DNA of 45,237 nucleotides from a virus (IMGVR_UViG_3300043172_000354), one strand, 5' to 3'. Numbered from the stretch's first letter, positions 4,768-24,728 are shown. Made by a program: numbers and translations. Notes: generated from the letters alone by a model not told the origin.

Positions 4768-6674
4768 TATGGTTTCCTCACAATTTCACCGTCTGTGTCA
4801 ATATATAGTGTACCACTCGGAAAAGCATCGAAAGCAGCTTGATCTTTCGGCGTATTCTCTGGGACTTCGATTTTGTTTGTCTTAACGCCAGGTACGGAGT
4901 TTGCTCGGGCGATGTCAATAGCCTGCTGTGCAGTTCTGCCATCAATAATCGACTGAGCAACGGAATCCTTGCCCGCCTGAGACATGGCTTGGAATGTTTC
5001 GCTTTCTTCAGCAGTCTTAAATCGCTTCCTCGCTATGGCTTCTTCTTCTGTATCTAAAAGGAAGCCAGCTAAGCCAGGTCCGCCAGGAACAAACATTAAG
5101 GCTGCCCCAAGCTTACCCTCTTTTCGTCTTATGAATTTCTCAAGGAAACCAAGAGTAACGTCCTCGATTGCCGGTCTTGACAACGCACTAACTTGTTGCT
5201 GCCATTTACGGGTAAAATCAGGATCGTCAGCATTAGCATCAGCCCACTTGTCAAGTATTGTCTGATTACGTAAAAAGGCGATTCCGATGTCTGCCACGTT
5301 CTTAAGATAATCTCCGTCATCCCTATCGAGCACGCTGATTGCTGCCGACCGAACTCTGTCAAGAGAGGCTTGACCTCTTTTCACTTCGGGCCGCCCCAAT
5401 ACTGGGTTCTTTTTGACGTCCGCAGATTCAGCAGCGGTACTGATATTATCAAGGTTAGTTTTGCCCTCAGTAGCCTTTACGTCCTTAGATACCTTCTTAT
5501 ATTCAGAAATGGCTTCATCGTAAGACAACTCGCCGGATCTTGTTCGCCTGAGTATTCCATCAACCTGGATATTGGTTTCGTCAGAAGTTACAAAATTGGC
5601 CTTCTTGTTAGAATTATTAACCGATGATATATAGGAATTAGCGGATATAATTTGCTTATTCTTTTCAATTTCCGTAATTGGCTGTGCTTTTATAAAAGCG
5701 TGAATCCCATCGAATTCGCCATTATTAAGCTTTCCTTTGATCTCGTTAATCGAATTGTCCGTAACTTGCTGGGACTCCAATTCTGTTTCCGCTCGACTAT
5801 TTCTCACTTGGGTTTCTAGCGACGTCCTAGCCTTTTGTTTTTCTGGTTCCGGCAAGCCAGATGCGTTGATAATATCAATACCAACTTGTAACTTGCCGTC
5901 AGGGTCTTCTATATCAACCGTAGCTTGCCAAGCATCGAAACCAGCAGTTGTTACATTGCCTCGGATTATCCCTGCACGTTTGACATCAGCGTCGGCCTTC
6001 CATGACTCATATCCCGCCATCCTCACCTCGTCAGTGTCCAGCAAAGGATTTTCCCAATCCTCTATTAGCTGGATTTTCGGATTTCCTTTTTCATCTAATA
6101 CCGGTACTGGTTCTCCGTCCTTGTCTTCGGTGGCATACTCTAAGCCGAAATAGTCCATGCCATTTGCAAGCTCAAGCTGGTAATCGGATTCCTGTAACGC
6201 ACTGGCGGTTCTTCTGGTGGCTTCTTTTATTCCCAGGTTCCAATTTTGAGTATAATTTTGAACGTCCTGTGTTTGCTTGGCTCCGAACACACGCCTCGTT
6301 TGCGATAAATCCTCGTTTGCTTTCCATAATTCAAATTCGTTTGCAGCTCTTTTGTTGGTGAATTTGTACGAACTTGTCTGGCCAGCCTTTAGATTGGGAA
6401 TGTATGTTTCGGTATCAGCGTTGGTCTGTAAATCCTGCTCATAGTCGAAAAACTTTGTCAGGTATTCAGTCTTTGAAGAATTAAGCTGGTTATGAAATTC
6501 AGCCTTTTCTTTCTCCTGTATGAATGCTACGCCAAACTCAGTGAGTGCTTCGCCTGTTTTTGCAGCACTTCTATTTCCCTGCGTAGCTGCCTGAATGTCA
6601 GCGGACGAAAGCTGGCCCACACCACTGAGAGGAGCTAATCTTTGATTTCTATATTGTTGTGATATTTCGGGCAT
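4767..6674 (-). CDS. Internal virion (ejection/core) protein, 635 aa
   Basis: Long ORF between the small internal protein and the giant protein (T7 gp15-like slot). Its stop overlaps the next start (TAATG). The sequence is Q/E/K-rich and alpha-helical-looking with no enzymatic motif recognised. Confidence 0.6.
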   Translation of the reverse strand: MPEISQQYRNQRLAPLSGVGQLSSADIQAATQGNRSAAKTGEALTEFGVAFIQEKEKAEFHNQLNSSKTEYLTKFFDYEQDLQTNADTETYIPNLKAGQTSSYKFTNKRAANEFELWKANEDLSQTRRVFGAKQTQDVQNYTQNWNLGIKEATRRTASALQESDYQLELANGMDYFGLEYATEDKDGEPVPVLDEKGNPKIQLIEDWENPLLDTDEVRMAGYESWKADADVKRAGIIRGNVTTAGFDAWQATVDIEDPDGKLQVGIDIINASGLPEPEKQKARTSLETQVRNSRAETELESQQVTDNSINEIKGKLNNGEFDGIHAFIKAQPITEIEKNKQIISANSYISSVNNSNKKANFVTSDETNIQVDGILRRTRSGELSYDEAISEYKKVSKDVKATEGKTNLDNISTAAESADVKKNPVLGRPEVKRGQASLDRVRSAAISVLDRDDGDYLKNVADIGIAFLRNQTILDKWADANADDPDFTRKWQQQVSALSRPAIEDVTLGFLEKFIRRKEGKLGAALMFVPGGPGLAGFLLDTEEEAIARKRFKTAEESETFQAMSQAGKDSVAQSIIDGRTAQQAIDIARANSVPGVKTNKIEVPENTPKDQAAFDAFPSGTLYIDTDGEIVRKP

Positions 6675-6706: not shown

Positions 6707-7456
6707 TTATGCGAATACGCCTCCGCCTGGAATACTTGGTCTACCGGCATTAGTATTGAATAGCGAAGTAGAGATAAAACTTGGTTTTTTCTTGACTTTA
6801 AAAAGTAAACTCTGTAATGATTTCTTTTTGACCTGACTGACACTTCCGGCAACCTGACTACCGCTTCCGGCGACCGAACCTGGCGTCTTCGGACCGCCAA
6901 AGTTACTCAACAGGGCTATCGTTCCAATTCCCTTAGCAAGATCAGCGGCTCCTCTTACCCTTGCACTTCTCCTGGCAAGCTGGCCTTGATACTTCACTAA
7001 CGCTCCTTTATTCCTTAGTTCCGTAGCTTTTACACCATAGTTTCGGGATATTACCAAAGCATCAGCTTCAAACTCCCTTGAGGTGTTTGCCAGGATCGAC
7101 AAATTAGAACCTGTGAGTTGACCGCCGTTAGCTGCCATCTGTGCTATTTGCGAAGCTTGAGCACGTTTGGCCTGTTTGCGTTTCTCTCTGGATTCTTGCT
7201 GGCCGACTTCCTCAAATGACTCAGCCTGTGCGTCGATCTGCTGCTGTTGAATTTCGGCTAACCTGGCAGTTTCTTTGCCTTCTTTTAAGGTCTGGCTGTA
7301 AGATAGTGCTAAGCCTCCACCCGCAAGCGCAAGTGATACAGGGTCGAATCGCTTGAACGGGTGAACGAAGAATATTTGATTACCGCGAACAACCGCCTTT
7401 GCCCCATAAGGGATATGCCTATTCGGGCAAATCATTTTAAATAGTTCATTTTTCAT
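6707..7456 (-). CDS. Putative internal virion protein, 249 aa (T7 gp14-like slot)
   Basis: ORF directly after the GNAT gene with an 11-nt overlap. It has an A/Q/G-rich coiled region (AEIQQQQIDAQAESFEE...RAQASQIAQMAANGG) and a Gly/Ser/Lys-rich tail, typical of small podoviral ejection/pilot proteins. Confidence 0.5.
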   Translation of the reverse strand: MKNELFKMICPNRHIPYGAKAVVRGNQIFFVHPFKRFDPVSLALAGGGLALSYSQTLKEGKETARLAEIQQQQIDAQAESFEEVGQQESREKRKQAKRAQASQIAQMAANGGQLTGSNLSILANTSREFEADALVISRNYGVKATELRNKGALVKYQGQLARRSARVRGAADLAKGIGTIALLSNFGGPKTPGSVAGSGSQVAGSVSQVKKKSLQSLLFKVKKKPSFISTSLFNTNAGRPSIPGGGVFA

Positions 7457-7895
7457 TTGTTGTCCTTGAGAAAAGATATGCGTCGTCTCCGTTTGGTAAA
7501 TAACTTTTCATGCCTTTTGGTGTTTCATTTTTAAATCCAAAGAACTCTACAAATTTAATGCTTACTTTGTTGTTCACATTAACAGATGATTGAAACCTTT
7601 TTACGCCAAACCGTTCGCCTTGATCTTTCAGAAACCTTTTTACGCTTCTAATGGCTACAATATTCCTGTCGCTTCTGATTAAACTAAACCAGACCTCGCA
7701 AACACCAGGCCATAGAATAGTAGCACCGAAACACGCTATCGGTCCACCTTCGTCCTCAAGCACCCAAGCCGGACCTCTACCTTCGTCGAAATACTCATAG
7801 TAGACTTCCCTGAGCGATTCTTGCTCAAGCACCAGAGACGGTATATCCGATGCGGTCATCGGTCTTGTTATAGGTTTAGTTATTTCTTTAATCAC
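7446..7895 (-). CDS. GNAT-fold (acyl-CoA N-acyltransferase-like) protein in the virion module
   Basis: 149 aa. The segment ...GPIACFGATILWPGVCEVWFSLIR...RSVKRFLKDQGERFGVKRFQSSV..N.VSIKFVEFFGF resembles the GNAT core (beta4-alpha3-beta5). It overlaps the nozzle gene stop by 8 nt. Confidence 0.5.
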   Translation of the reverse strand: MIKEITKPITRPMTASDIPSLVLEQESLREVYYEYFDEGRGPAWVLEDEGGPIACFGATILWPGVCEVWFSLIRSDRNIVAIRSVKRFLKDQGERFGVKRFQSSVNVNNKVSIKFVEFFGFKNETPKGMKSYLPNGDDAYLFSRTTNEK

Positions 7896-10311
7896 CGCTA
7901 ACCTGCACTTTCGATTGAATCGCAGTTATATTGAACGGGAAAGGATCTTCCTGTACGAACTTGATCTGAACCTCGTCTGACCAACCGCCGTCAACCTCTA
8001 ATCGTATCAGTCCGGTATAAGGGTCATTTGAACCGTTGGTTGTATCGGGCCATTCCGAGAACATAATATCATACATCACAGGTTCGGTAAATTGTTCTTT
8101 TAATCCATATTGCCCGGTCATTGTCTTGTAGAAACAGGCGTCAATCTCATATACCTTTTTCTTGTACCCTATTGAAAACCCGTTTTGGGTTTGGACTTCT
8201 ATCGGAAAAGTCAAGAACGTAGATGTGTACGGAAGCCCGATTGTAGCACGATTTACTTTGAAGTTCCCCAAGTCAATTTCGCCATCCGTTACAGTTGCCT
8301 CAGTAGATAATGCCTCTGTGAGAGTATAGCCTGGATATACGCCAGAACCATACGCGCCGGACCCATACGGAACAGGGCTTGAAGTTAGCGTATATTCATT
8401 ACCCTCAGCTATCATCACTTGAACAGTCTCACCCTCTAAATGATCGAGCCCTGTTATTGTGTCAGTTAAAATACCAGAATAAGTTAAGCCCGAATCCACA
8501 AACCAAGCATCATCTGGATCGGTTCCCCAGTCCTGCGGCTGCATTTGCTCGATGTATCTAATATCGCCACCGGCTTTTGTTCGCTTTACTACAACCCAAA
8601 CCTGATCTTCGTCTGCTCCAGGTATAACGGCCACTGATTCAAACTCTCCATCAGTAATATGCCTTGCCCACCCAACCACACCCTCATTCCTGTTGTACGT
8701 CAACGATACAAGCTGGCCATCGCTCCTGACGAACCACACTATATCGTCAGGCCGATTTTGTACGGCTATGTCTATCAGACCGGGAGATGTTATATGTTCT
8801 GCCATGACAGTAAGCTCAGGAGAAACGAAACCGTCGCTCTGTAGGTCGTAGATCATATCCCGAACCTTACGCCGGTTACGGTCCACGAATACGATAGATT
8901 CACCGATTAGAGCCGGTTGCATATCAGCACTTCCGACATCGGCCTGCCTTTCTGCTCCGAAACTAGCCGGAGTTAATACAGACGTACTTGACTGGCTGGA
9001 AATCCTTATGGCAGATCCGCTTGTTCCTGCGATGATACCGTTTTTGTCCTGGAGCCATAGAATAGGATTTTGTTTCGTTGCGCTAATTTCTTCGTTAATC
9101 GCCCCATTATCTAAAGTTGATTCCCGCATACTCTCAAGGTCGAAAGATGTGCTTGTCCAGAAACCGTTTGGTTGGTAGGTTGTCCCTGCAAGACATAGCC
9201 TGTTTTGGTACATACAGATAGATCGCGGATAACCCCTGCGAGGACTCCAAGCGCCCTCAGCCCATTTAGTCGTTGCGGCCGTCCCAGCTAGTGTGCTCGT
9301 TACCGTCGCGGTTACGACCTTTGTACTGGTGTAAGCCGTTACCTCAACGTACCCGGAAACATCGGAGTTATAGGAGGTAAGAGTATAATCACAACTTCCA
9401 GCAGTCCGATCAGTCATTGTAACGCGGTATTCATAGCCTGCGTCGGGTTCGTTAAAGGAGTATTCGATATTGGCGGCATCGCCGTTAAGTTTGGGATATA
9501 CCGGCTCCCATGAACCAGCGTCAATAACGCTCTTTTCCAATGTCAGCAGACCGGTCCACGTTCCCTCTAATGTCAACAACCCATCGCCCTCTACGGCAAC
9601 GGTGGAGCTACTTGCATTTGTCGCGATATTACCCGACGTATAAGAGTTAGCTGATTTTTCGATTATCTTCCATAGAGAGCCAACATTGTCAGCGGTAAAG
9701 ATAGCAGACGAAGCAGTCAGGGTGATCGTGCCTGTAGTGGCCGATGGTGTTATGGTGGTTGTCGTGGTGTTCTGGTCAAGGAAAGGCCCCCACTCCCAAT
9801 CTACATCGGCGATCGTCCATTCGTCATGGTCGATCCTAATCAGCTTTTGGGGGGGATCGTCCGGGTGAACAATATACATTACGTCGTTTGACTGGACATA
9901 TTGTATTTCTGATATTTGGTCTTCGCCGTAAACTGTTGAGGTTGCATAAATATCATCATTGTCATCAAGGATTTGACCAGCAACTCCATTTACGCAACGG
10001 AAATACCAGATATTACTATCCGAAAACGACAAAACATAGGCATCATCCGTAGAACTTTCAAAAGAAACTAAATGAGAAACCCTATCGGCATCTGCTACAT
10101 AAATCGTCCCGGCTCTCCGCATTGCGGTTCCCTGTGGTTTGACGAGGAAATTCTCCATCGTCTCAACGCCCAGGTACTTCTTGTCGAGATCAACACGGTA
10201 TCGAAGCAATGGGCTTAGCTCCCCTGAGTTGAAAGCAGTATTCAGGGACGCAGAGAAACCAGTCAGACAAAGAATAGGTAACAGTAATATTAGTAGCAGT
10301 TTTTTAAGCAT
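7888..10311 (-). CDS. Tail nozzle / tail tubular protein B-like protein with an N-terminal signal-peptide-like extension
   Basis: 807 aa, close to T7 gp12 in size. The motif FNSGELSPLLRYRVDLDKKYLGVETMENF..KPQG...RRAGT resembles N-termini of podoviral nozzle-type proteins as I recall them. It is preceded by MLKKLLLILLLPILCLTGFSA. A GGAG lies 4 nt before the ATG. Confidence 0.6.
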   Translation of the reverse strand: MLKKLLLILLLPILCLTGFSASLNTAFNSGELSPLLRYRVDLDKKYLGVETMENFLVKPQGTAMRRAGTIYVADADRVSHLVSFESSTDDAYVLSFSDSNIWYFRCVNGVAGQILDDNDDIYATSTVYGEDQISEIQYVQSNDVMYIVHPDDPPQKLIRIDHDEWTIADVDWEWGPFLDQNTTTTTITPSATTGTITLTASSAIFTADNVGSLWKIIEKSANSYTSGNIATNASSSTVAVEGDGLLTLEGTWTGLLTLEKSVIDAGSWEPVYPKLNGDAANIEYSFNEPDAGYEYRVTMTDRTAGSCDYTLTSYNSDVSGYVEVTAYTSTKVVTATVTSTLAGTAATTKWAEGAWSPRRGYPRSICMYQNRLCLAGTTYQPNGFWTSTSFDLESMRESTLDNGAINEEISATKQNPILWLQDKNGIIAGTSGSAIRISSQSSTSVLTPASFGAERQADVGSADMQPALIGESIVFVDRNRRKVRDMIYDLQSDGFVSPELTVMAEHITSPGLIDIAVQNRPDDIVWFVRSDGQLVSLTYNRNEGVVGWARHITDGEFESVAVIPGADEDQVWVVVKRTKAGGDIRYIEQMQPQDWGTDPDDAWFVDSGLTYSGILTDTITGLDHLEGETVQVMIAEGNEYTLTSSPVPYGSGAYGSGVYPGYTLTEALSTEATVTDGEIDLGNFKVNRATIGLPYTSTFLTFPIEVQTQNGFSIGYKKKVYEIDACFYKTMTGQYGLKEQFTEPVMYDIMFSEWPDTTNGSNDPYTGLIRLEVDGGWSDEVQIKFVQEDPFPFNITAIQSKVQVSGD

Positions 10312-10340
10312 TATGCTCCGCCAGAATTATCTAAATTCCA

Positions 10341-12656
10341 TTAGTTTTGATTCGCCGCGTTATCCATGTGCGATATCATTCGCCAAACATTAGTAGTTGA
10401 TGTTGCTGTTGACTCACAAACCCACATCGTAACGTCGCCGCTCGCTGTCGTTAAATCTGTAGTGCCGCACTCAAGCAGGTTTCCGTCAACATCGTAGACT
10501 ATCGCTCCTTTTGATATTACGGTTATTTCTTGACCGATCACACCATCATCAAATCTTGAAAAAGTAGCTCCGGTTGTGCCGGTAAACCAGAACTTACCGC
10601 CACTGACAGAAGGCGAAGTATCTGTATCGGTAAAAGTCGTTGAAGTATTGACTGTCTGCACTGTTGGCACTGCTGCCGTAACCCATAAATAGCCATTGAC
10701 ATTCTCGCCATTGTCGTAAAGCATAGCTACGCCAGCCGTCAATGGTATGTCAACATAATGCGTATAAGTGTCAGCTGCGAGTCCTCTCCATATTCTTATT
10801 TCTGAATAAGGGGCTCTTCCGAAACAGGTTAGTAATATAGCACCCGTTTTAGTTACAAGTGCCTCCGTAACTTCGCTAACCTCGGCACTCTTTATTGTTT
10901 GTCCCTTTGGGTTTATTGAAGCTATCCGGTAGAAATATTCCTCGCTCGGGTCAAGATTCCCAACTGGTGTTGAATCTTCTTGTACTACTGAGAAGATACT
11001 TGGAGTTGCAGTCATCAAAGGATAGTCCACTATGCCTTCACCTTCAGCATTAGTAACTTGCCAGCCCGCATTGCCATCATTCAGCACTTGGACATTAGAA
11101 CTAAGCAATCCACGGTTTAATTCAAGTTCAGTATTTAAACCTGCATCTGATGACAATATTGTTATACCCGAAGTAGCTAGTTTTCCCCCCGTTATCTGGA
11201 ATCCAGATTTGCTATTTCTTAAGTCAAGCTGAAATCTTGTTCTGGGAGAATTGATGTATATTTCAGGTTTCGTTTTGTGGCTAATTGCAGCAAAGTGCTT
11301 AGTGAGGAAAGTGCAACCAGTGATTGATACCTGACTATTATCTATTATAGCCCCACCATCGCTTATCTCAATCGGATATTGGTCTGTTACAGTACCAATA
11401 AAATCTATCCCGGCAGGATTTTCTTCAGCACTGTCAACCCGAAGGTATGACCACAGGATGCAATCGTTTATTCCAACCCTTGAGTTCTTAATTTTTATTC
11501 CAGGCACGCTTTTGTATGTCTCTAAATGACAGGCGTTGAATTGGATTGCAGTGCAATCTAGTAAGTCAAAAGTACCATTTACACATGCGTTAAATTGACC
11601 TCCGTTGCAATTCTTAATCTTAGCTAGTCCATTAAACTGATGCCAAGGACTTCCGTGACAGCTATCCATAATAAGTCCGTCGCCAGAAAATTCATTTTTA
11701 TAAAGGTAACTACCTTCTGTTATAGTTGTCGGGTTTGCTGCTACGGGTGTTTGTAAACTGAAACTAACCTCTTTAAATGTTACATTGTCACAAACCTGCG
11801 TACATCTCACTCCATAAAGCAGATAGTTCATTTCAACATTCGTCATTGTAAAGAATGAATTATTGAGCCTAATAAATCCCTGCTGTAATGTCTGGGTGGT
11901 ATCACCTAATACTTTTAAATCTCTGACTTCATATCGTAAACCAGGAAATTCCAATGCCGTAGCAGATCCAGATGTCTCATTGAGGTACAAAAGGAAATCT
12001 TCGTCTAAGGCAGCATCGTTAAGATGTAAAACCGTGCCAAAACCCTGACCTCTGAAAGTGAATTTAATATCATTAGTCGTGCTATCAAAATAAACAGAGT
12101 CTTCAAATTTATAAGTGCCATTCTGGAATACAATATTGCCGCCTATTGTACCGATGGCATTTTCTAATGCTTGCAATGGTACTGAATTATTTGTTGAATC
12201 ATCAGCAACGCCACCCCACCATTCCACTAAGAATCCGCTTTGAGGTGTCTTGCTGAATACGACGGTTCCAAGGCCATCGAATAAATCTTGCGGGCTTGCT
12301 GAAACATCACCGCTGATCGTAACCACAATCCCAGTGTCTATCGAAAGCTTTGCGCCCTTAAAGAATACGCAAGGCACTGATAATGTTAGATTGCTCGATA
12401 CCCTGTATGTGCCGCTTGGAAAAAGCAATGTCTTTCCTATGGCGTTTGAATTGAATAGGGCTGTCCTATCATCTGTTGTTCCGTCACCAGTAGCGCCATA
12501 CTCCTTAACGCTTACCCCACCTTTAACTGCATTGAGATAATCATTAAGATCAGTTCCCCATGTGTCAATATCGCCAATATCCGGCAATGAATAGAGTGGT
12601 GCTCCAAAAGCCGTAACACTGCAAAGTAAAACTAAGATTACAATAAACTTTTTCAT
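10341..12656 (-). CDS. Tailspike with right-handed beta-helix (pectate-lyase-fold) depolymerase domain
   Basis: VKEYGATGDGTTDDRTALFNSNAIGKTLLFPSGTYRV is the classic pectate_lyase_3/tailspike N-cap motif. The start is set at MKKFIVIL (12656, preceded by AAGGGAAG). The track start at 12695 is also possible. The N-terminus is signal-peptide-like (MKKFIVILVLLCSVTAFGA/PLY). Confidence 0.8.
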   Translation of the reverse strand: MKKFIVILVLLCSVTAFGAPLYSLPDIGDIDTWGTDLNDYLNAVKGGVSVKEYGATGDGTTDDRTALFNSNAIGKTLLFPSGTYRVSSNLTLSVPCVFFKGAKLSIDTGIVVTISGDVSASPQDLFDGLGTVVFSKTPQSGFLVEWWGGVADDSTNNSVPLQALENAIGTIGGNIVFQNGTYKFEDSVYFDSTTNDIKFTFRGQGFGTVLHLNDAALDEDFLLYLNETSGSATALEFPGLRYEVRDLKVLGDTTQTLQQGFIRLNNSFFTMTNVEMNYLLYGVRCTQVCDNVTFKEVSFSLQTPVAANPTTITEGSYLYKNEFSGDGLIMDSCHGSPWHQFNGLAKIKNCNGGQFNACVNGTFDLLDCTAIQFNACHLETYKSVPGIKIKNSRVGINDCILWSYLRVDSAEENPAGIDFIGTVTDQYPIEISDGGAIIDNSQVSITGCTFLTKHFAAISHKTKPEIYINSPRTRFQLDLRNSKSGFQITGGKLATSGITILSSDAGLNTELELNRGLLSSNVQVLNDGNAGWQVTNAEGEGIVDYPLMTATPSIFSVVQEDSTPVGNLDPSEEYFYRIASINPKGQTIKSAEVSEVTEALVTKTGAILLTCFGRAPYSEIRIWRGLAADTYTHYVDIPLTAGVAMLYDNGENVNGYLWVTAAVPTVQTVNTSTTFTDTDTSPSVSGGKFWFTGTTGATFSRFDDGVIGQEITVISKGAIVYDVDGNLLECGTTDLTTASGDVTMWVCESTATSTTNVWRMISHMDNAANQN

Positions 12657-12695
12657 GATTCTTCCCTTTAGATTATTTTCGTTAGCTACTGACAT

Positions 12696-13016
12696 TTATT
12701 CCTGTATTACATTAGGATCGATTATTTTTGCTTTATCGGCTAACTTACCTTTGCCTTTGAAGTATATAGCCAACAAATAACGCCGTATTATAAGCTTTAT
12801 CCATTGCTTCTTTGTGTGCTGCGGAACCGCCTTGCTAATATCGCCAGGGTCATTAGGATCTGGAACCGTAGGAATCGGTGCTACTTCCAGAAATCCAGCC
12901 GAAAACTCAGCAACCTTATCCGCTGGAATAACGATAGTAATTTCAACATCACCAACCGCGGCGAATATATTACATGCTAATGCCATCAGTAAAACCATTA
13001 TTATTAGTTTCTTCAT
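12696..13016 (-). CDS. Small signal-peptide protein, unknown function
   Basis: 106 aa with AAGGAA 5 nt upstream of the ATG. N-terminus MKKLIIMVLLMALACNIFA/AVGD. Confidence 0.55.
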   Translation of the reverse strand: MKKLIIMVLLMALACNIFAAVGDVEITIVIPADKVAEFSAGFLEVAPIPTVPDPNDPGDISKAVPQHTKKQWIKLIIRRYLLAIYFKGKGKLADKAKIIDPNVIQE

Positions 13017-13025
13017 GTCGTTTCC

Positions 13026-14120
13026 TTAATTATCTACCAAGACCAAATCAAATGCCGCAATTACGCCCATATCTGCTGAAGTCGAATCGCATCTTATTAA
13101 AATATCTGTTTTTTCTGGTATACCTACAGGCACGCCATATTCGTATATCCAGAACTGAGAGGCTGTTGTCATCACTTCCACTTGCCCTTTGATTGCGAAT
13201 ACGCCAGTTGATCCATTATTTACCCTTGCCCGCCATGTGAACACTGCTGAACCTGCCGTTGTTGGATTAGCTCTCGACCCAAGACCTACATAACCCTTGA
13301 CGAAATAACCTGACTTGCCTGATGATACTGTAAATGCCGCCTGCTGTGTCTGACCGTCCATTGCAGCGATAAATGTACCGGCAATAACAGTTGCGTCAAT
13401 TTCAACGGTTATGTCACCTTCGTTCGCGGCTGACGATCCAGCATGGAGTACAATTGACCTATAAAGCCTTACATACTGATTAAGCATAGCAACATCAGTC
13501 TGTCCGTTCAATATCACGGTTTCTGTGGTTATTGTCCAGATACCACTTGAGTCGCTTAATCCCTCAACACTTATAACCCCCGCTCCAGTGTCGGCACTTG
13601 ACGCAACCCTATAAGTATCGCCTGATTCATTAGGGAAGTTTCTCTTTTGCGGGAGTGCTGTTTGAGCAGTTGATCCGCTTGTCATTGGAGTATGAGTTAA
13701 GGTTGTACCGGAAGTGACTTCGTTTACAGTTCCAAACTCACCGTTCGTATCATTTATAACTATATCACCAACCGCAACCCCGTCACCAGTGAAGTTTGCA
13801 CCAGTGTCAATTAACGTAATAAGACTTCCGCCAGTTGCAGTACCCGAACTGACTAATACGCCTACATCGTCAACATCCGTACTTACAGCCTCTACAGTTT
13901 TATTTACGTTTGTGTCCCAGAAAGTGTATAACCCACCACCACCCCAAACGTCTTCCGGCCCACCATTCACCGATTCGTTATGTCCATACTTGTTCATCTG
14001 AGAATGGCCGTAAACTTTACCCTTAGCCACTTCCAGCATGAAGTCTGTTGATCCAATTCGTGACGCATAGCAATTAAAAGTAATCGCCAATATTAAGATT
14101 AAATATAGGAGTTTTTTCAT
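13026..14120 (-). CDS. Putative tail fibre/receptor-binding protein (beta-rich) with signal-peptide-like N-terminus
   Basis: The start is moved to ATG 14120 (MKKLLYLILILAITFNCYA/SRIG), just after the TAA of the upstream gene (TAATATG). The C-terminal half (...NGQTDV...YVRLYRS...EGDITV...GQTQQAAFTVSSGKSGYFVKGY...) looks like a jelly-roll. Confidence 0.5.
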   Translation of the reverse strand: MKKLLYLILILAITFNCYASRIGSTDFMLEVAKGKVYGHSQMNKYGHNESVNGGPEDVWGGGGLYTFWDTNVNKTVEAVSTDVDDVGVLVSSGTATGGSLITLIDTGANFTGDGVAVGDIVINDTNGEFGTVNEVTSGTTLTHTPMTSGSTAQTALPQKRNFPNESGDTYRVASSADTGAGVISVEGLSDSSGIWTITTETVILNGQTDVAMLNQYVRLYRSIVLHAGSSAANEGDITVEIDATVIAGTFIAAMDGQTQQAAFTVSSGKSGYFVKGYVGLGSRANPTTAGSAVFTWRARVNNGSTGVFAIKGQVEVMTTASQFWIYEYGVPVGIPEKTDILIRCDSTSADMGVIAAFDLVLVDN

Positions 14121-14121
14121 A

Positions 14122-15816
14122 TTACCACCATTTATCCGTTGTCTCAAAGGTTAATATTATTACATCGCCAGCATTAAGTATCACATCTACAGTAGAGCCT
14201 AGTATATTCTCTGCTGAGGTTATTGTTATTGTGCCTGTGCCTGAGTTGATTATTCTGAATGTCTGTCCATCTACGCCAGTAGGCAGGGTTACAGTGAATG
14301 TTCCATTGCAGTACACTTGGTCGTCTGTTGCTGGTATAGTCTGAGTTGTCGTGTAGCGAGAGGTGTTCTTTATCCGCCCTGACTCGCTCTTGACCACGCC
14401 TGCTACCTCAAGGGCGTAGGTCGGGGCTGTGGTGTCGCCTATGCGGACGTTGCCGGTTACATTGAAATCTCCGTTAGCGAAAAGCCACGGGCCAGATGCG
14501 TGTGCAGGTAAGAAGCCAGTTATTAAGCTACCTATGTTTAATTCATGGCTTACAGTAGCACCAGACACATCTATGTCGTGACCTATAAGGATGTTCTCGC
14601 TACCAGTCGTTAATGTATTGCCGGTTTGGTAGCCAATAAATGTATTCTCGTTTCCATTAGTCATTGCAAGTGCTGCCTGTGCTCCCACAACCACATTCTT
14701 TCCGCCTGCATCTATAGCCATGCAGGTAGATGCACCGATGGCTACATTCCTGAACGCTGTCTTAATTGCACTCCCTTGCCCCCGTAACGCATTCCACCCT
14801 ACGCCAGTATTCCCACCAAACCCACTAGATATATCCCTTAACGCATTTGTACCTATGCCAACATTTGCGTCTGTCGTGCAAAGTATTCCCGCTTGTTCTC
14901 CAATGAGCATATTATCTGAGGCCGTCCCCAAGAGGAACCCAGCGAATCCTCCTAGACAGATATTCCTCTTGCCAGAAGTTATGCCATTTCCAGCATTAAC
15001 GCCAATTCCTACATTTCTTTCGCCGCTTGCCGTAACATCCTCAAGCGTAGTTGAGTCGCCAATTCTAATATTACTAGTCCCAAAGCCCTCAAATTCTGCA
15101 TTGCCACCAATGAGGTAATTGGTTGCATCAAGTATTCCATCAACAGTAACCTCGCCAAGCGTGCCGTTAAGGATGATGAGGTCAGGGCCAAAGTCTGCCG
15201 TCCCAGCACTGATAGTCCCGGTGGTGGGGAGGGTTAGGTTGCCGGTTAGGGTGAGGTCATCGAGGGGAATTGCTGAGGTTATAACTGTCCCGGTTCTTGA
15301 CCAATAGCCGAGAATCCCGCTGGTTGGTGGAGTTGATGTTAGCTGTTTCGATCCATCTGTGTAAACTCCAAGATTTATCGAAAGTCCGCTGTCAATGATA
15401 TTTCCGAAAGTCCCCAAACCACCTGTGATAGTTGCGGTCCCATCAGTTAAAGTGCCGCCTGTGATTGTGCCGGTGGATGTTAAATTCGTAGCGTGAAGCG
15501 TGTCAGTAATAAACGTCACATCAGCATCGTCGGCAAGCAACCCATCTGCACCTGCGAAGACTACCCGCGTTTCCGTGAGATCAGATACACTTACACTATT
15601 AGCATCAACGGTGTCAACCGTGAGCGTCCCCGCAATTGTAAGATTGTTGACATCAATAATATCATAGCCGGACATATTAAGATCACCCTGCATAGGATTA
15701 GATCCTGTTATTGTCAGGTCTTTTTTCAGATTACTTCTCAGGGTGTAATTAGTACCCGACGTGTCCGCCGAAGCAGAAGCGGTAATAAGCAATAATATTA
15801 AAAGTATCTTTTTCAT
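14122..15816 (-). CDS. Tail fibre protein with repetitive N.aIG..A head-like repeats
   Basis: 564 aa. Repeats such as NVGIGVNAGNGITSGKRNICLG, NVGIGTNALRD, NTGVGWNALRG, NVAIGAS, NTFIGYQTGN and NILIGH are typical of phage fibres and YadA-head-like repeats. ATGA start/stop coupling links it to the adaptor gene. N-terminus MKKILLILLLITASASA/DTSG. Confidence 0.7.
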   Translation of the reverse strand: MKKILLILLLITASASADTSGTNYTLRSNLKKDLTITGSNPMQGDLNMSGYDIIDVNNLTIAGTLTVDTVDANSVSVSDLTETRVVFAGADGLLADDADVTFITDTLHATNLTSTGTITGGTLTDGTATITGGLGTFGNIIDSGLSINLGVYTDGSKQLTSTPPTSGILGYWSRTGTVITSAIPLDDLTLTGNLTLPTTGTISAGTADFGPDLIILNGTLGEVTVDGILDATNYLIGGNAEFEGFGTSNIRIGDSTTLEDVTASGERNVGIGVNAGNGITSGKRNICLGGFAGFLLGTASDNMLIGEQAGILCTTDANVGIGTNALRDISSGFGGNTGVGWNALRGQGSAIKTAFRNVAIGASTCMAIDAGGKNVVVGAQAALAMTNGNENTFIGYQTGNTLTTGSENILIGHDIDVSGATVSHELNIGSLITGFLPAHASGPWLFANGDFNVTGNVRIGDTTAPTYALEVAGVVKSESGRIKNTSRYTTTQTIPATDDQVYCNGTFTVTLPTGVDGQTFRIINSGTGTITITSAENILGSTVDVILNAGDVIILTFETTDKWW

Positions 15817-16667
15817 AGATCATACACACTATTTAATGTATTATTTGCACCATAGGCCCAATCGTTATTATCTTCGTCCTCATACCAAGACTCATCACCG
15901 TTCTTTTCCCTGGCGTGAAGATAAGCCTCGTTTAGTTCAACTTCTATCTTTTGTTCCCGTCTCTGATTTTCAGTTACATTAGGAGCGAGTATGTAAGCGA
16001 TTCTGGCAGAGATCAACCTGTGGAACCATACACGCATTTGAGTGACATCGCTAACAATTGCGCTACCTTGATAGCCTATCCACTTATTGTACCGAATAAA
16101 TGCGTCTACCTGGTTTGTGTAAATAACCGATCCCTCTGGGTAATATGGGAAATTCACTCTGTCGCAGTCGGACCCGCTTGTCTTTAGCAACCAGAGAATA
16201 TCTGATGGACGTTTGAAACCATACTGCCAGTTCCCGTGTTCAAGGGAATCCGTGTCTTCCGGGTAGCCCGCCGCATTGACCCGGGAATTTGTCCCATCGC
16301 TTAAAGTTTCCCCGTCAGTCCAATCACCTGTAGGCTTTGTCACCAAATACACCGTATCAGATAGAACCTCGACAACCGTACAAGTAACGGCGCTCGTACC
16401 GCCAGTGATCGTACCGCCAACATACCAGACTGCCGGCGTTGGTGCGGCATCAATAGTCAGCTTATGGACCTGCACTAAATCCTCGAACTTTACCCGCTTG
16501 CGGCTGAAATACCAATCCTCGGCCAAAAGCTCTCTGACGACACTTTCAAAGATCGCGTTTACCTTTACGGCGTCAGGCTTCGAGGACTCCAGAGACGTAA
16601 TCATACTTTCGCCTATGAGCAGCAATCCAATATTCGCTATTGCAGTTTTTTCAGTATCGTTTGCCAT
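15813..16667 (-). CDS. Tail adaptor / tail tubular protein A-like
   Basis: The N-terminus TAIANIGLLLIGESMITSLESSKPDAVKVNAIFESVVRELLAEDWYFS matches the gp11-type pattern (..A...IGE..I.SL......A......L....W.F). It has no signal peptide and sits downstream of the capsid genes. Confidence 0.65.
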   Translation of the reverse strand: MANDTEKTAIANIGLLLIGESMITSLESSKPDAVKVNAIFESVVRELLAEDWYFSRKRVKFEDLVQVHKLTIDAAPTPAVWYVGGTITGGTSAVTCTVVEVLSDTVYLVTKPTGDWTDGETLSDGTNSRVNAAGYPEDTDSLEHGNWQYGFKRPSDILWLLKTSGSDCDRVNFPYYPEGSVIYTNQVDAFIRYNKWIGYQGSAIVSDVTQMRVWFHRLISARIAYILAPNVTENQRREQKIEVELNEAYLHAREKNGDESWYEDEDNNDWAYGANNTLNSVYDL

Positions 16668-16678
16668 TTCAAAACCTT

Positions 16679-17587
16679 TTAGAATTTACGGCCATAAACG
16701 GTTATATCGCCAGCTTCTTCACCCGTAGCGGCGTCTGCGTCATAAATAACAACCTGAACCCAGTCAATGCCCTTAAGGTCAACAACAAGGCCGGCAACTT
16801 CATTGTCACCTGAATTTATAACCTCAATAGTACCCTTGTTACCGGTACTGGCAGCAGCCCCATCTATTGCGCTTGTCCATTTTGTTGTTTCGTCAAGAGC
16901 AATCGTATCGGCCCACATTGCAGGGTTGATGTAAACTGTAGCCGTGGTGTCAGCCGTAGAAGCTGCACCCGAAGCGACTGCGACATCAGCACTGGTCCAT
17001 GTGGTTATTGGATAGAACCCGGAAGTCAGCTTAGTTTCATTGTCAGATAGAACGTACATTCCTGAACCAACAGCCTGACCCAAGAAAGCATCGGTCTTGG
17101 TGAATGTGGTATCTGCGTGCGTATAAACAACAGCCGCCGTTGTCACGTCAGGACCAAGTGCATCTCCGCCGTCAGGATAGACAACAACAGCCTGTGTGCC
17201 AAGAACGCAGTTACCCTCGGCGATAACCTGTAACATACCATTTTCTCTAGACCAACCGACGATATTGAAGCTGAAAGTATCGTCAACGCCATTGTAGCCT
17301 TTGCCGCAGAAAGAAAACATCCATCGATTATTCAGTCCAGCTCTTGGCGATATTTGGTAAGCCGCTGAGCTCTTATTGGCAAAATTACCTTCCGTAGTCA
17401 GATCATAAACCGCGGCAAAAGTCGCTCCATCTTCGTCAGCAGTCGCGCGTATCTTTACCCATTCGGAATGAAAGCCATCGGCAGGGTCAGCGTTTATAGG
17501 CGAAATTTGCAATGCCATCAATGCAATAAACGCCAGAATTGCCAAACTTACCAAAGCTGCTTTTCCATATCGTTTAATCGTTTTCAT
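16679..17587 (-). CDS. Virion-module protein of unknown function with N-terminal signal/anchor sequence
   Basis: 302 aa with AAGGAA 7 nt upstream. N-terminus MKTIKRYGKAALVSLAILAFIALMALQISPINA/DPADG. The sequence is beta-rich and T/A/G-rich. Confidence 0.5.
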   Translation of the reverse strand: MKTIKRYGKAALVSLAILAFIALMALQISPINADPADGFHSEWVKIRATADEDGATFAAVYDLTTEGNFANKSSAAYQISPRAGLNNRWMFSFCGKGYNGVDDTFSFNIVGWSRENGMLQVIAEGNCVLGTQAVVVYPDGGDALGPDVTTAAVVYTHADTTFTKTDAFLGQAVGSGMYVLSDNETKLTSGFYPITTWTSADVAVASGAASTADTTATVYINPAMWADTIALDETTKWTSAIDGAAASTGNKGTIEVINSGDNEVAGLVVDLKGIDWVQVVIYDADAATGEEAGDITVYGRKF

Positions 17588-17600
17588 TTTTTGAGTTCCT

Positions 17601-17636
17601 TAAAAAACAAGGCGGGCAAGTGTATATACCCGCCTC
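17601..17636 (-). terminator. Rho-independent terminator inside the structural arm
   Basis: On the minus strand: AGGCGGG-TATATACACTTG-CCCGCCT followed by TGTTTTTTAAGG. It lies 4 nt after the stop of ORF 17640..18596. Confidence 0.7.
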
Positions 17637-17639
17637 TAT

Positions 17640-18596
17640 TTAATTGGATTGAGCTATACACACCCAGTCGATTGTCATTGTATTTACAGTCGTAGTTTCA
17701 GCAAATGCACCGTAACAGACACCCATTCCAGTTGCATCGGGCAAAGAAGCTTCTGTGATATGAGCAGTTCCAGCTACTCCATTAACGTAAGGCGTAATAA
17801 CCTGAACAGCACCAGTCATAACACATTTGAAACCCAACTTAACATAGGTTCCGTCAACAAGACCAGTAACCGCACCAGTTGTTTTTTCCTCGGTTGCTCC
17901 ATCTTCTGTAATAAACCCAAGCGTAGCGGTTGTGTCGCCGTCTTCATGGTAAAAACCTATCTTATCAACAACGTCATCAACAACTCCAGACGGCATTATA
18001 GATGTTAGGGTATCAGTTAAGCCAACAAAGAACATTCCTTCTGCGTCCTGCGTGTGGTCAATTCCAGCAAAAGATACCCTAACCTCAAACCAAATAGTCT
18101 TGGTGTCAGCCGGAATAAAAGGAGTTGCGCTATACATGACAGTCAAACCATCGTTAGGAGAGGCGAACGCTTCTGAGCTTACAACCAGTGCGCCTCCGTC
18201 CACTTCTGACTTTGTAGTCAACCCACTCGTTACTTCTGTTTGAATCCAGTCGGCAATTTCAGTGGTAGACGTTCCTGTGAGGAATCCAGGTATCAGGGAG
18301 CCAGCACCGCCCCATCGAGTCGCGTATGTATGGTAATCATAGAACCCTGCTTCTGGGTCGCCTATTCCGATAGCAACTGGACAGTCTTGCCAGAGTGTCG
18401 GGCTTTTGCCTCTGCTAGAATCTGAAGCAGTTCCAGTAAGGAGTCTGTCTTCAAAATCTTCAACCCACGCCCTGAGCGTGTTTCCGACTAGGTTAGAGTA
18501 AGTTTCCTGACTCCACCACTTAATATCAGCCGAAGACGCACCAAAAGCACTCACTGTCAGCATCATTAAAATTAACAAAACAATAAACTTCTTCAT
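17640..18596 (-). CDS. Virion-module protein of unknown function with signal-peptide-like N-terminus (C-terminal jelly-roll-like domain)
   Basis: The start is set at ATG 18596 (MKKFIVLLILMMLTVSAFGA/SSAD) with GAGGTG 6 nt upstream. The track's GTG at 18605 is 3 codons further upstream. Confidence 0.5.
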   Translation of the reverse strand: MKKFIVLLILMMLTVSAFGASSADIKWWSQETYSNLVGNTLRAWVEDFEDRLLTGTASDSSRGKSPTLWQDCPVAIGIGDPEAGFYDYHTYATRWGGAGSLIPGFLTGTSTTEIADWIQTEVTSGLTTKSEVDGGALVVSSEAFASPNDGLTVMYSATPFIPADTKTIWFEVRVSFAGIDHTQDAEGMFFVGLTDTLTSIMPSGVVDDVVDKIGFYHEDGDTTATLGFITEDGATEEKTTGAVTGLVDGTYVKLGFKCVMTGAVQVITPYVNGVAGTAHITEASLPDATGMGVCYGAFAETTTVNTMTIDWVCIAQSN

Positions 18597-18686: not shown

Positions 18687-19151
18687 CTAAGTCCTTGCTA
18701 CAGGGACTTTCTGGATCGCGTCATTTTCCGTCAATGGTGCAATGCTAAAGTGTGCGTCAGCAGTCTGGCCGGTAGTAAGCGTGGTACTTGTTGCCTTATA
18801 CCACAAACCGACGAACTTCTGAGTCAAGCTCGAAATACCCTCGATATTCTTGACACAACCAGCAACCAATTCGGCCACGCTTACATGAACTGTACCAAGC
18901 TTTACTTCGGTTCCAGTTGTCATATCAGCGTTGTCGTTGGACAAAAGATCGATGTCCATACCTTCATCGCCTGCAACCTGCCCAGAAAGGGGAGGGATCG
19001 TAATATTTACTATCGCGACAATCTGATCATTTTCGATTATGGTATTGCCGCCGCTTTTTTCCAGTTCCATATCGAATACATGTGTACTCACAATACCTGT
19101 GCTATCAAGAGCGCCAAGTGCTTGAGCGTTACTAAATTCAAGATCGTGCAT
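18687..19151 (-). CDS. Putative capsid decoration/cement protein
   Basis: 154 aa, immediately downstream of the major capsid gene. It has the same AGGGAGTT ribosome-binding site as the capsid gene. The sequence is beta-rich, and the position equals that of Bbp16-type cement proteins in BPP-1-like capsid modules (from memory). Confidence 0.45.
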   Translation of the reverse strand: MHDLEFSNAQALGALDSTGIVSTHVFDMELEKSGGNTIIENDQIVAIVNITIPPLSGQVAGDEGMDIDLLSNDNADMTTGTEVKLGTVHVSVAELVAGCVKNIEGISSLTQKFVGLWYKATSTTLTTGQTADAHFSIAPLTENDAIQKVPVART

Positions 19152-19208
19152 TTTAAAACTCCCTAAATAAATTTATTTATATTTCAACTACTGCCAATTA
19201 CGCAGTTA

Positions 19209-20234
19209 TTACGAAACCACATCCTGGCTGTCAGTCATGATCGTGTCGTCAATGTAACGAATCGGAATATTACCCTGGAAGGCAGTTACCTGCTTGCCAA
19301 ATATTTCCATCGGCGACCACATGAGATTTGCTTTATCCAAAGCGTAAATCTCCATCTGAGTCTTGATGGTTGGGTTGCAGTATATCCGCGTGCGGTTACG
19401 ATCAAAGCGGCCGTTATTGAGCAGCTTGATAAGATTTGCAGTACCGCCGTCTTCAAACGACTTTGAACCACCAACCGTAGGATTGATATTGCAAAGACGA
19501 GCGATTTTGCGGTTGTTACCTACTGCAAGACCAGCCCACGCCTTAAGCTGAGCGACATAAGCATAGTAAGCGGCCAGGGTGTCATCTTCATCAAGGACTT
19601 TTTCTTTGCCCTTATCGCGGATGGACACACCAAACGGGGCATTTCTGCCGAATCCGGCTTGCGGGTAAATTCCATACGCTCCGCCGCTCTCATCCGTATT
19701 CCATTCAACAATCAGAACACTCGTGCCGGCACTTGCATAACCGTTGGACTGTACGTTGTTCAGGCCAGAAGGATTAAGAGAACTGAGCCTTTGAAGCAGA
19801 CCGTTCATGTTCTCGCTACCATCGTCCTGATCGCCATTGATGAAAGCATCAACCACATCTTCGCCGAGCTTACGGGCGTGGCCTTCATCTTCCTGACGCA
19901 ACTTTGTTGCAGGATTTGCCAAAGTGTCGATCTCATCTTCATCGATCTCCCTGCGGCGTTCCATAAGCATAACATCTTCGTACACAACCTGTTTGTTGCG
20001 CTTCGATGCTGTTACACCCTTATACATGGTTCTTTTTGTGCTTTTGACCATTCCAGTATCACGGAGGATCTTATGCTTAAGACCCATATTGGCCTCAACA
20101 AATGGAACGTCCATGAAGAAATCGTCGACCAGTTCATTCATTACACTGATGATAGGCAGAACGGTTTTGCCGTCCGAAGTTTCCTTAGCTCTATCAAGAA
20201 GTGTGTACTTTGTGTTAATGTATTTCGTTGCCAT
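19209..20234 (-). CDS. Major capsid protein (HK97-fold class)
   Basis: 341 aa, directly downstream of the scaffold gene with a strong SD (AGGGAG). The motifs ...NMNGLLQRLSS..., the long central helix region (REIDEDEIDTL...RQEDEGHARKLGEDVVDAF) and the position are typical of this class. Confidence 0.8.
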   Translation of the reverse strand: MATKYINTKYTLLDRAKETSDGKTVLPIISVMNELVDDFFMDVPFVEANMGLKHKILRDTGMVKSTKRTMYKGVTASKRNKQVVYEDVMLMERRREIDEDEIDTLANPATKLRQEDEGHARKLGEDVVDAFINGDQDDGSENMNGLLQRLSSLNPSGLNNVQSNGYASAGTSVLIVEWNTDESGGAYGIYPQAGFGRNAPFGVSIRDKGKEKVLDEDDTLAAYYAYVAQLKAWAGLAVGNNRKIARLCNINPTVGGSKSFEDGGTANLIKLLNNGRFDRNRTRIYCNPTIKTQMEIYALDKANLMWSPMEIFGKQVTAFQGNIPIRYIDDTIMTDSQDVVS

Positions 20235-20237
20235 GCT

Positions 20238-20286
20238 GATAACTCCCTAAAATAATTAATATTACATTTATTTTTCGGGAGTTATC
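20238..20286 (-). promoter_or_regulatory. Hairpin sequestering the capsid-gene Shine-Dalgarno
   Basis: gataactccc (20238-20247) pairs perfectly with gggagttatc (20277-20286) around a 29-nt AT-rich loop. The 3' arm on the mRNA contains the GGGAG located 8 nt before the capsid ATG. Confidence 0.6.
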
Positions 20287-20412
20287 CGCACTATACGGCT
20301 TCCCTGACACTTTGCGGCGGTTTGGCCGGTCTGCCCTTTGCAGACTAAGCATCAGATCTCTTTCGAGGTTGTCTGAACTACTATTTTAAACGACTGAGTT
20401 ACCCTTACGGGT

Positions 20413-21183: not shown

Positions 21184-21452
21184 CTTCGTTTGCCCTTTAA
21201 TAGTCTTTTAATCAATGTTTTCAATTTGCCGGGCCTTACAACAGGCCCATGAATAGTATTCAATAACTGCTTTGCGTAATTGCATAAAGCCTGCTGTTCA
21301 GGTGTTTCGCATTCACGCAGGAAATACAGGTCTGATAGTATATCTTCAAGAACAGCCTTGCCGTATTCGCCTGTAAACACGGCAAGGTATATTCTTTGAC
21401 GTTCCTGATCGTCTGCTTCTACATCTTCAATTGGTTCAAGTCCATTAAGCAT
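21180..21452 (-). CDS. Small conserved capsid-module protein (Bbp19-like, tentative)
   Basis: 90 aa. RIYLAVFTGEYGKAVLEDILSDLYF resembles the Bbp19-like phage domain as I remember it. It overlaps the scaffold start by ATGA. Confidence 0.4.
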   Translation of the reverse strand: MLNGLEPIEDVEADDQERQRIYLAVFTGEYGKAVLEDILSDLYFLRECETPEQQALCNYAKQLLNTIHGPVVRPGKLKTLIKRLLKGKRR

Positions 21453-24530: not shown

Positions 24531-24728
24531 TTAACCAGCCCCTAAAGTCTTACGCGAAATGTTAGCCTCACCAGTTACTTGATTAAGTTGAGTAGCCCTA
24601 CGCCGCTTTGCTAATTGCTTGCGGGTAGTCTCATCAGCGATATTGCTCTGCTGAATCTTCTGGACCGGCTGAGCAACTTTCTGCGTCGGAGGTCTTTTCG
24701 GTTTTCCGCCAAATAGTGAATTTGTCAT
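24531..24728 (-). CDS. Small basic protein
   Basis: 65 aa, K/R/Q-rich with no TM segment. Confidence 0.4.
   Translation of the reverse strand: MTNSLFGGKPKRPPTQKVAQPVQKIQQSNIADETTRKQLAKRRRATQLNQVTGEANISRKTLGAG

Follow-up and report, generated by a model that had tools for sequence, protein, structure and literature searches.

The viral contig IMGVR_UViG_3300043172_000354 (45,237 nucleotides, analysed over its whole length and hereafter called the window) carries a tail module in which seven minus-strand genes, which we name A to G, each begin with a segment resembling a Sec-type signal peptide (SP). The window ends, 1-127 and 45111-45237, form a 127-bp terminal direct overlap, so the assembly is circular and about 45.1 kb long, and its source is an uncultured podovirus (short-tailed phage) with a T7/BPP-1-like structural module. 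Transcription of that module runs through the terminases, portal, scaffold, capsid, decoration, A, B, adaptor, C, D, E, F, G, GNAT and the gp14-, gp15- and gp16-like genes (Table 1). Gene G encodes the tail nozzle: the protein matches phrog_376 (E=1e-177) and PDB chain 8ck1_A, ‘Tail Nozzle’ (E=9e-81), and is flanked by the GNAT, gp14-, gp15- and gp16-like genes.

A sequence-only reading of the window had described these seven genes as consecutive and their N-termini as near-identical. All seven N-termini that it quoted are present where it placed them. The two descriptions need amending: the SP-less adaptor gene sits between B and C, and the SP-coding DNA of the seven genes has a mean column identity of 58%, mostly imposed by composition, so the segments are alike in composition only. 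Recent duplication of a single SP cassette was rejected for the same low identity.

Anatomy of the seven signals

SPs were called with a home-made heuristic for n-, h- and c-regions combined with comparative evidence. The n-regions of all seven proteins are positively charged (MKK, MLKK or MKTIKRYGK) and lie at the true N-terminus. They lead into uncharged cores rich in Leu, Ile and Phe, with a mean Kyte-Doolittle value of about 3, which span 10-15 residues in A, C, D, E, F and G and a borderline 17 in B. The c-regions are AxA-like, with small residues at -3 and -1. In A, B, C and G the AxA site stays in constant register with the conserved mature N-terminus, and Ala is found at -1 in 57 of the 81 heuristic calls among nozzle homologues; in F the cleavage position is ambiguous by 3 residues, and Pro follows the GA site. 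Judged on these regions, the seven segments conform to the sequence-level definition of type I (Sec/signal peptidase I, SPase I) signal peptides.

Other classes of N-terminal signal were considered and rejected. The lipobox [LVI][ASTVI][GAS]C of lipoprotein (SPase II) signals is absent: the signals of A, B and C contain no Cys, and the Cys contexts in D, E, F and G (FNC, LAC, LLC and ILC) depart from the rule of Gly, Ala or Ser at -1, E fitting it weakly. No n-region of the seven contains the RR of a Tat signal, and the prepilin motif is absent from the seven N-termini. The cores are Leu/Ile/Phe-rich and not weakly hydrophobic and Gly/Ala/Ser-rich like those of signal-anchor-release (SAR) domains, and none of the seven proteins is an endolysin.

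The starts themselves are well defined. The ATGs are preceded at 5-9 nucleotides by Shine-Dalgarno (SD)-like GGAG, AAGGA or GAGG (in gene A, GAGG at 7 nucleotides) or, in gene C, overlap the adaptor stop codon, and the start codons of all seven agree with independent Joint Genome Institute (JGI) gene calls for contig Ga0484908_000016 of sample 3300043219. Gene F has the SD sequence AGGGAAG at its 12656 start, and its product would have 784 residues if the ATG at 12695 were used. It had been claimed that no start lies between codon 1 of the nozzle gene and the family motif, and this holds: the next in-frame ATG, GTG or TTG of G is codon 35, past the family-invariant N28, G30 and E31.

Within the window, the heuristic is positive for 7/7 of A to G and for none of the terminase, portal, scaffold, capsid, decoration, adaptor, GNAT, gp14-, gp15- and gp16-like proteins, which bears out the earlier statement that the pattern is absent from the portal, capsid, decoration, adaptor, GNAT and internal proteins. 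Elsewhere in the window it picks out small membrane proteins and a single hydrolase that has a membrane span at its N-terminus. The background rate, taken from 113 related loci without the trait, is 45/712 (6%) for other same-strand open reading frames (ORFs) and 3/150 for head and internal genes, and by our own arithmetic the chance of seven SP calls in eight adjacent genes is about 1e-8. The adaptor, with the N-terminus MANDTEKTAIANIG, forms the border: as predicted here, every structural part distal to it is SP-bearing, and all that builds or fills the head is SP-less.

Homologues of several of the seven proteins preserve both the signal and its junction. Those of A (318-1018 residues) have an SP followed by the conserved S(T)SAFDI(K/Q)WW, and those of C keep xSA/DTSG(T/S)(N/K)Y. 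SP-bearing homologues of E occur in the related loci L137 (84% identity) and L130 (32%), and those of F in L148 and L132. Protein A has no Pfam or PHROG match, and sequence searches of A, B and D against the PDB returned no match. The AlphaFold2 model of B (predicted local distance difference test score 80.7) has weak BFVD matches only, to phage fibre and endosialidase beta-barrel proteins, and no significant PDB match.

Table 1 Features of the window, with predicted signals and their junctions (structural genes in order of transcription)
Feature	Coordinates	Strand	Signal peptide	Matches
Small terminase	27373-27795	minus		
Large terminase	25324-26901	minus		
Portal	22721-24406	minus	none	
Scaffold	20413-21183	minus	none	
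Major capsid protein	19209-20234	minus	none	
Decoration protein	18687-19151	minus	none	
A, fibre-like, 318 aa	17640-18596	minus	~18537-18596: MKKFIVLLILMMLTVSAFGA/SSADIKWW	
B, all-beta structural protein, 302 aa	16679-17587	minus	~17489-17587: MKTIKRYGKAALVSLAILAFIALMALQISPINA/DPADGFHSEW	
Adaptor, T7 gp11-like tail tubular protein A	15813-16667	minus	none	phrog_394 E=1.7e-22; PF17212 weak
C, tail fibre/spike-like, 564 aa	14122-15816	minus	~15766-15816: MKKILLILLLITASASA/DTSGTNYTLR	PHROG tail-spike/virion structural
D, phrog_8198 family, 364 aa	13026-14120	minus	~14064-14120: MKKLLYLILILAITFNCYA/SRIGSTDFMLEV	phrog_8198 E=1.9e-32
E, small protein, 106 aa	12696-13016	minus	~12960-13016: MKKLIIMVLLMALACNIFA/AVGDVEIT	
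F, pectate-lyase-like tailspike, 771 aa	10341-12656	minus	~12600-12656: MKKFIVILVLLCSVTA/FGA/PLYS	PF12708 E=4.4e-8; PHROG tail
G, tail nozzle, T7 gp12-like tail tubular protein B, 807 aa	7888-10311	minus	~10249-10311: MLKKLLLILLLPILCLTGFSA/SLNTAFNSGELSP	phrog_376; 8ck1_A
GNAT	7446-7895	minus	none	
gp14-like	6707-7456	minus	none	
gp15-like	4767-6674	minus	none	
gp16-like internal protein, 1868 aa	1-4758 + 44271-45215 (wraps window ends)	minus	none	
Metallo-beta-lactamase-fold hydrolase, N-terminal membrane span	34332-35240	plus		phrog_392
AAGGAC hexanucleotide array, perfect, x17.3	38736-38839			

Elsewhere in the window, the capsid/decoration region 18687-20234 contains a match to PF20911 (GP7), and the ORF at 44271-45215 is the C-terminal part of the gp16-like protein. 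This internal virion protein carries an ART-PolyVal (ADP-ribosyltransferase) domain and may be a candidate ejected effector. Genes for replication and recombination occupy the plus strand (RecT, an SNF2-type helicase, a DnaC/IstB-like loader, RecU and methylases), and the window contains no integrase, tRNA or Rfam match. The AAGGAC array lies inside an ORF starting at about 38359, just upstream of the DnaC/IstB-like gene, where it encodes a (Lys-Asp)17 linker; an 11-bp repeat, AGGGTATGCAA, present 2.6 times, directly precedes it. The plus-strand hydrolase has a sub-threshold match to the anti-Pycsar nuclease family Apyc1.

Distribution of the signals among relatives

The sequence-only reading had suggested looking for the same pattern in related contigs, and we found it in more than 40 related loci drawn from ENA, Logan, NCBI, IMG/VR and GTDB (L-numbers denote such loci and P-numbers protein homologues). 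SP calls were tallied by gene class in two sets. In the SP-type loci the nozzle ORFs were positive in 16/16 cases in the first set and 23/23 in the second (39/39 together; in plain loci the number is 0 by definition), and homologues of A to F in 19/19 and 35/37 (54/56). Other ORFs between the decoration gene and the nozzle gave 20/29 and 7/11. Head, adaptor and internal genes were positive in 3/65 and 3/69 (6/134), next to the 3/150 of plain loci, and these rare positives are gp14's own membrane segment or an adaptor helix. The adaptors of all SP-type relatives are SP-less, with one heuristic false positive on a conserved N-terminal helix.

The nozzle shows how far the trait extends. About 100 of the best 120 metagenomic homologues (85% to 34% identity) are SP-bearing: 81 pass the heuristic, and about 20 more visibly have an SP that it misses. 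The genuinely SP-less nozzles among them start about 9 residues before the FNxGE motif. Between close relatives (75-85% identity in the mature part) the SP varies in sequence and length while the n/h/c pattern is kept, and signal peptides typically evolve in this way, by drift in sequence with the physicochemical pattern retained. When 170 nozzles were placed in a neighbour-joining tree, the SP state was gathered in a single large, unbroken clade, to which no locus labelled Proteobacteria, Verrucomicrobiota or Lentisphaerota belongs. Where the nozzle is split into three ORFs (L133, L140-142 and L155), each piece has its own SP. On these counts the trait is under selection, lineage-wide, specific to gene class and all-or-none.

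Several further features of the relatives concern the same proteins. The split nozzles comprise consecutive ORFs of about 120, 480-860 and 670-790 residues (L133 7821-12055, L140/L141, L142 and L155), and the split recurs in several independent contigs. SP-type nozzles of 1180-1310 residues (P0009-P0013, P0028, P0030-P0033, P0037 and others) end in Laminin_G_3, sialidase, Peptidase_M26_N or Glug domains, and it appears that these extended nozzles themselves bear receptor-binding or enzymatic modules. Some relatives encode extra tailspikes after gp16, and these too are SP-bearing. In a ‘Methanoperedens’ metagenome-assembled genome (MAG) contig (L100 20949-22355) and in Desulfobacterales MAGs (L106/L107) the nozzle is SP-less and ORFs after gp16 or the nozzle are SP-bearing; the trait may also occur in partial form beyond the main clade. 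SPase I substrates of Bacteroidota have Gln at +1 after cleavage, the ‘Q rule’ (PMC10367356), which 0/7 of the window signals follow. One nozzle subclade (P0038-P0044) has predicted SA/QP sites, with Gln at +1 as in that rule; different nozzle subclades may infect different phyla. No phage-encoded Sec components or signal peptidase were found in the window. The SP-type relative L134 encodes at 2714-3067 a protein of 117 residues with a weak match (CSCGSGKKYKKC) to SEC-C, the C-terminal zinc motif of SecA that binds SecB, of which no equivalent was found in the window.

The signal as an added element

In the nozzle, the claim that the family motif begins just past the predicted cleavage site proved correct. 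The phrog_376 profile aligns from residue 23, and for the homologues from cultured phages (pelagiphages, BcepC6B and others, at 30-36% identity) the alignment begins no earlier than residue 20-27. In the solved nozzle, 8ck1_A, query residue 21 is aligned with chain residue 11. The extension of about 20 residues is thus absent from the cultured and solved homologues to which comparison had been proposed. T7-type nozzles, in their cytoplasmic form, begin about 8-10 residues before FNxGE, whereas the window protein has 26 residues before F27, 21 of them signal. After the predicted cleavage, 5-8 residues would precede the motif, compared with 8-9 in SP-less homologues.

B and D repeat this arrangement. 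In the B family, 119/120 homologues have a hydrophobic N-terminus and the conserved junction [AVST]xA/[EDA]PxDx[FY]HSxW, with sites such as AKA/EP and VKA/EP. An exhaustive profile search also returned distant members of about 180-200 residues without an SP, for which reason we rejected the idea that B is a clade-specific export or assembly factor and take it to be another structural protein with an added signal. In the D family, SPs are found in 37/120 homologues, and SP-bearing and SP-less forms are intermixed at 67-78% identity. SP-less D homologues (67-72% identity) begin M-SRIGSTDFMLEV (P0378) or MSELRN(T/S)DFMLEV, at or a few residues from the predicted +1 position of the window protein, CYA/SRIGSTDFMLEV. 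In all three families (nozzle, B and D), then, SP-less homologues start at or a few residues from the predicted cleavage site, and the alignments mark the signal as an added segment.

We wondered whether the signals reflect the phage lineage or a demand of the host, since an atypical host envelope had been among the meanings proposed. The taxon labels on SP-type relatives consist of two ‘uncultured Pirellulales’ MAG bins (L082 and L091), which are phage-only contigs, and one ‘Pacearchaeota’ bin that we judged implausible; they give a weak hint of Planctomycetota hosts. The proposal keeps that hint in its favour. Against it stands L166 (IMGVR_UViG_3300043219_000052), a podovirus from the same sample as the window that has no SP on any structural gene. 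At 19904-21330 it encodes a D homologue with 73% identity, which starts 5 residues past the predicted cleavage site of the window protein and has an unrelated N-terminus of 30 residues in place of the SP; L166 also shares a homologue of the MAKEQW... membrane protein that comes after gp16. Because L166 is SP-less and yet shares the D module, the trait looks like a strategy of the phage lineage and not one imposed by the host.

The C-D-E genes recur in L137 (8461-11425), where they lie between gp14 and gp15 with their signals kept and with D 96% and E 84% identical to the window proteins. Judging by this identity and displacement, the C-D-E cassette is mobile between SP-type genomes. Since it moves with its signals while the D homologue of L166 lacks one, the signal seems to follow the assembly mode of the phage and not the carrier domain.

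Proposed assembly of head and tail in two compartments

Textbook assembly of tailed phages is entirely cytoplasmic, and to our knowledge the nozzle, fibres and spikes are cytoplasmic in all tailed phages that have been studied. The core of the sequence-only reading, that Sec-type SPs have been added to these proteins in conflict with such a pathway, is upheld by their absence from cultured and solved homologues and their conservation across a large clade. We consider it very probable, from the sequences, that A to G carry functional, cleavable Sec signals, and the pattern suggests that maturation of the outer tail takes place beyond the cytoplasm, which would set it apart from the tails of all tailed phages studied so far.

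In the mechanism that we propose, the very hydrophobic signals would route A to G to the host Sec translocon. Highly hydrophobic h-regions favour the signal recognition particle (SRP), and because of the hydrophobicity of the signals, export is likely to be SRP-dependent and co-translational. SPase I would remove the signals, leaving N-termini equivalent to those of the SP-less homologues, and the host would have two membranes, with a periplasm in which the nozzle, fibres and spikes would fold and form oligomers. DNA-filled, adaptor-capped heads would wait in the cytoplasm, and heads and tails would meet only after the holin has opened the inner membrane, while the outer membrane still holds. 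An SP boundary that falls at the adaptor is what this topology predicts. Joining after lysis is physically plausible, since heads, tails and fibres join spontaneously in lysates, as in classical in vitro complementation, and canonical holin lesions exceed the size of a capsid.

The separate parts of this proposal differ in strength. The combination of genuine cleavable Sec SPs with a distal tail that is exported to the periplasm and joined to adaptor-capped heads at lysis is, in our estimate, evenly poised between right and wrong. To periplasmic maturation of the tail with post-holin joining to heads, taken by itself, we give slightly less than even credence. We give similar, less than even credence to the proposal that the clade assembles its virion in two compartments, the head and adaptor in the cytoplasm and the nozzle, fibres and spikes in the periplasm, by a previously unknown Caudoviricetes route. 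Such a route might go together with Planctomycetota hosts whose periplasm is enlarged, with escape from anti-phage sensing in the cytoplasm, or with both.

A number of points weigh against assembly in two compartments. Cleavage and export are deduced from sequence, and the joining of an exported hexameric nozzle and trimeric spikes after the breach is without tailed-phage precedent and would have to be efficient within a short window of time. The route needs a periplasm, whereas the host is only weakly hinted at. No endolysin was recognised in the window, and the holin/i-spanin candidates (24728-25304 and 43800-44249) were recognised by shape only. A rationale based on oxidative folding is unsupported: SP-bearing nozzles are no richer in Cys than SP-less ones, and the Cys content of all SP proteins compared with core proteins (1.15% vs 0.51%, p=0.07) does not differ significantly. 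The 17-residue core of B could be a membrane anchor and not a cleaved signal. No phage-encoded Sec components or signal peptidase were found in the window. The SP-type relative L134 encodes at 2714-3067 a protein of 117 residues with a weak match (CSCGSGKKYKKC) to SEC-C, the C-terminal zinc motif of SecA that binds SecB, of which no equivalent was found in the window.

The strongest competitor would have uncleaved or late-cleaved signals anchor the tail parts on the inner membrane, which would then serve as an assembly platform. The long core of B (17 residues in the window and about 20-23 in homologues) would suit such a tether, as would the extreme hydrophobicity of the cores, which favours membrane retention, and membrane-associated assembly steps are established elsewhere, for example in T4 prohead initiation and for Ff coat proteins. 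Six of the seven cores, however, are too short at 10-15 residues for a stable span, and AxA sites in register with mature N-termini, together with SP-less homologues (as in D) that start at +1, argue for removal. The positive n-region moreover predicts an N-in/C-out orientation that would still place the bulk of each protein in the periplasm, and the 6-18 hydrophobic helices retained per tail would be hard to fit, given that the solved nozzle has only 10 residues before the aligned core. We therefore regard uncleaved anchors, which the sequence-only reading had listed, as unlikely. Its secreted free depolymerase belongs to a second, decidedly less probable account, in which most of the exported protein acts outside the virion (in depolymerisation, receptor masking, superinfection exclusion or as decoys) and virions are built in the cytoplasm from protein left unexported, for example through Sec saturation or late collapse of the membrane potential. 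Free phage depolymerases are known, F is a pectate-lyase-like spike, and in relatives the nozzle is fused to sialidase, laminin-G, M26 and Glug domains. This account nonetheless leaves the signals on the nozzle core, B, E and each split-nozzle fragment unexplained, and precursors that were not exported would leave a hydrophobic N-terminus in the virion; the strict gene-class border at the adaptor points to a rule of assembly topology and not to side functions.

Signal peptides are also known to retard the folding of precursors, and several defence systems act in the cytoplasm by sensing or modifying tail proteins, so the segments might serve as pro-peptides or chaperone handles that delay folding or hide tail proteins and are removed by another protease without translocation. 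The complete n/h/c and AxA architecture is, however, exactly what Sec and SPase I recognise, and a search of the window turned up no protease or peptidase encoded by the phage; we think a non-export role very unlikely. The removable pro-peptide that had been suggested earlier agrees with the evidence to the extent that it amounts to cleavage by SPase I. An artefact or chance resemblance (mis-called starts, spurious ORFs or ordinary buried hydrophobic N-termini) could draw on a heuristic with a background rate of about 6%, and is effectively refuted by the comparative data: the SD-supported starts were called independently by JGI, the pattern is conserved over more than 40 independent assemblies (JGI, ENA, Logan and NCBI), solved and cultured homologues are without the segment, and the chance estimate is as small as given above.

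Export of the distal tail to the periplasm has partial parallels in known systems. The signals share with bacterial Sec/SPase I signals a positive n-region, an h-region of 10-15 residues, an AxA c-region and fast drift with the pattern kept, and differ in their location on core virion parts (nozzle, fibres and spikes) of a tailed phage. The tail resembles those of T7, BPP-1 and HTVC010P in gene content and order and in the homology of its nozzle, adaptor, gp14 and GNAT proteins, and relatives of the window phage have a Bbp16-like decoration protein; the cultured members and the solved nozzle of that type, in contrast, are without an N-terminal signal, and in the window phage fibre genes lie between adaptor and nozzle. 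Sec-exported and SAR endolysins, such as Lys44 of Oenococcus phage fOg44 and Lyz of P1, are likewise late phage proteins that use host Sec to reach the periplasm or cell wall before lysis, but they are lysis enzymes and not virion parts, and SAR domains are weakly hydrophobic and Gly/Ala-rich where the cores here are Leu/Ile-rich and followed by AxA. The pIII and pVIII proteins of Ff phages are established as virion structural proteins with signal peptides that pass through the inner membrane before assembly; Ff virions, however, are extruded without lysis and have no icosahedral head, whereas in the window phage the signals are confined to the distal tail, with a cytoplasmic head. In vitro complementation of heads, tails and fibres (T4, P22 tailspike) also joins tail parts away from the site of head assembly, though only in the test tube, and the tails of the Acidianus two-tailed virus grow outside the cell. 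We know of no natural case of compartment-separated tail assembly in the Caudoviricetes.

A full-text search of the literature returned no account of a podovirus whose tail module bears Sec signals, although one may exist beyond the searched texts. Rumen phages, according to one survey, have 0-2 signal peptides in each genome (PMC5723332), and a study of P. gingivalis phages reports them on some phage proteins, not on a tail module (PMC10367356). The observation is real, non-random and conserved, and it is apparently undescribed.

The window belongs to a deep and diverse lineage, with dozens of genomes of about 45 kb and nozzles down to about 34% identity, in which exactly the parts beyond the adaptor have retained a Sec signal, and in which each fragment of a split nozzle gene has one restored. 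The trait provides a simple sequence marker of the clade and a caution for annotation pipelines that exclude virion proteins by their signal peptides. Its benefits might, speculatively, include secretory folding of extracellular-type enzyme or lectin domains, destruction of receptors from inside the infected cell and concealment from cytoplasmic immune sensors. It raises the questions of how oligomeric tail machines of large size fold once their subunits have crossed the membrane through Sec, whether phages keep structural proteins out of sight of immunity in the cytoplasm, and how receptor-binding modules travel between export-type and cytoplasmic-type phages, the D family gaining or losing its signal at a precise junction. 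If export is true, the topology in which these phages build their virions would be new, and they would offer a natural example of head-tail joining coupled to lysis.

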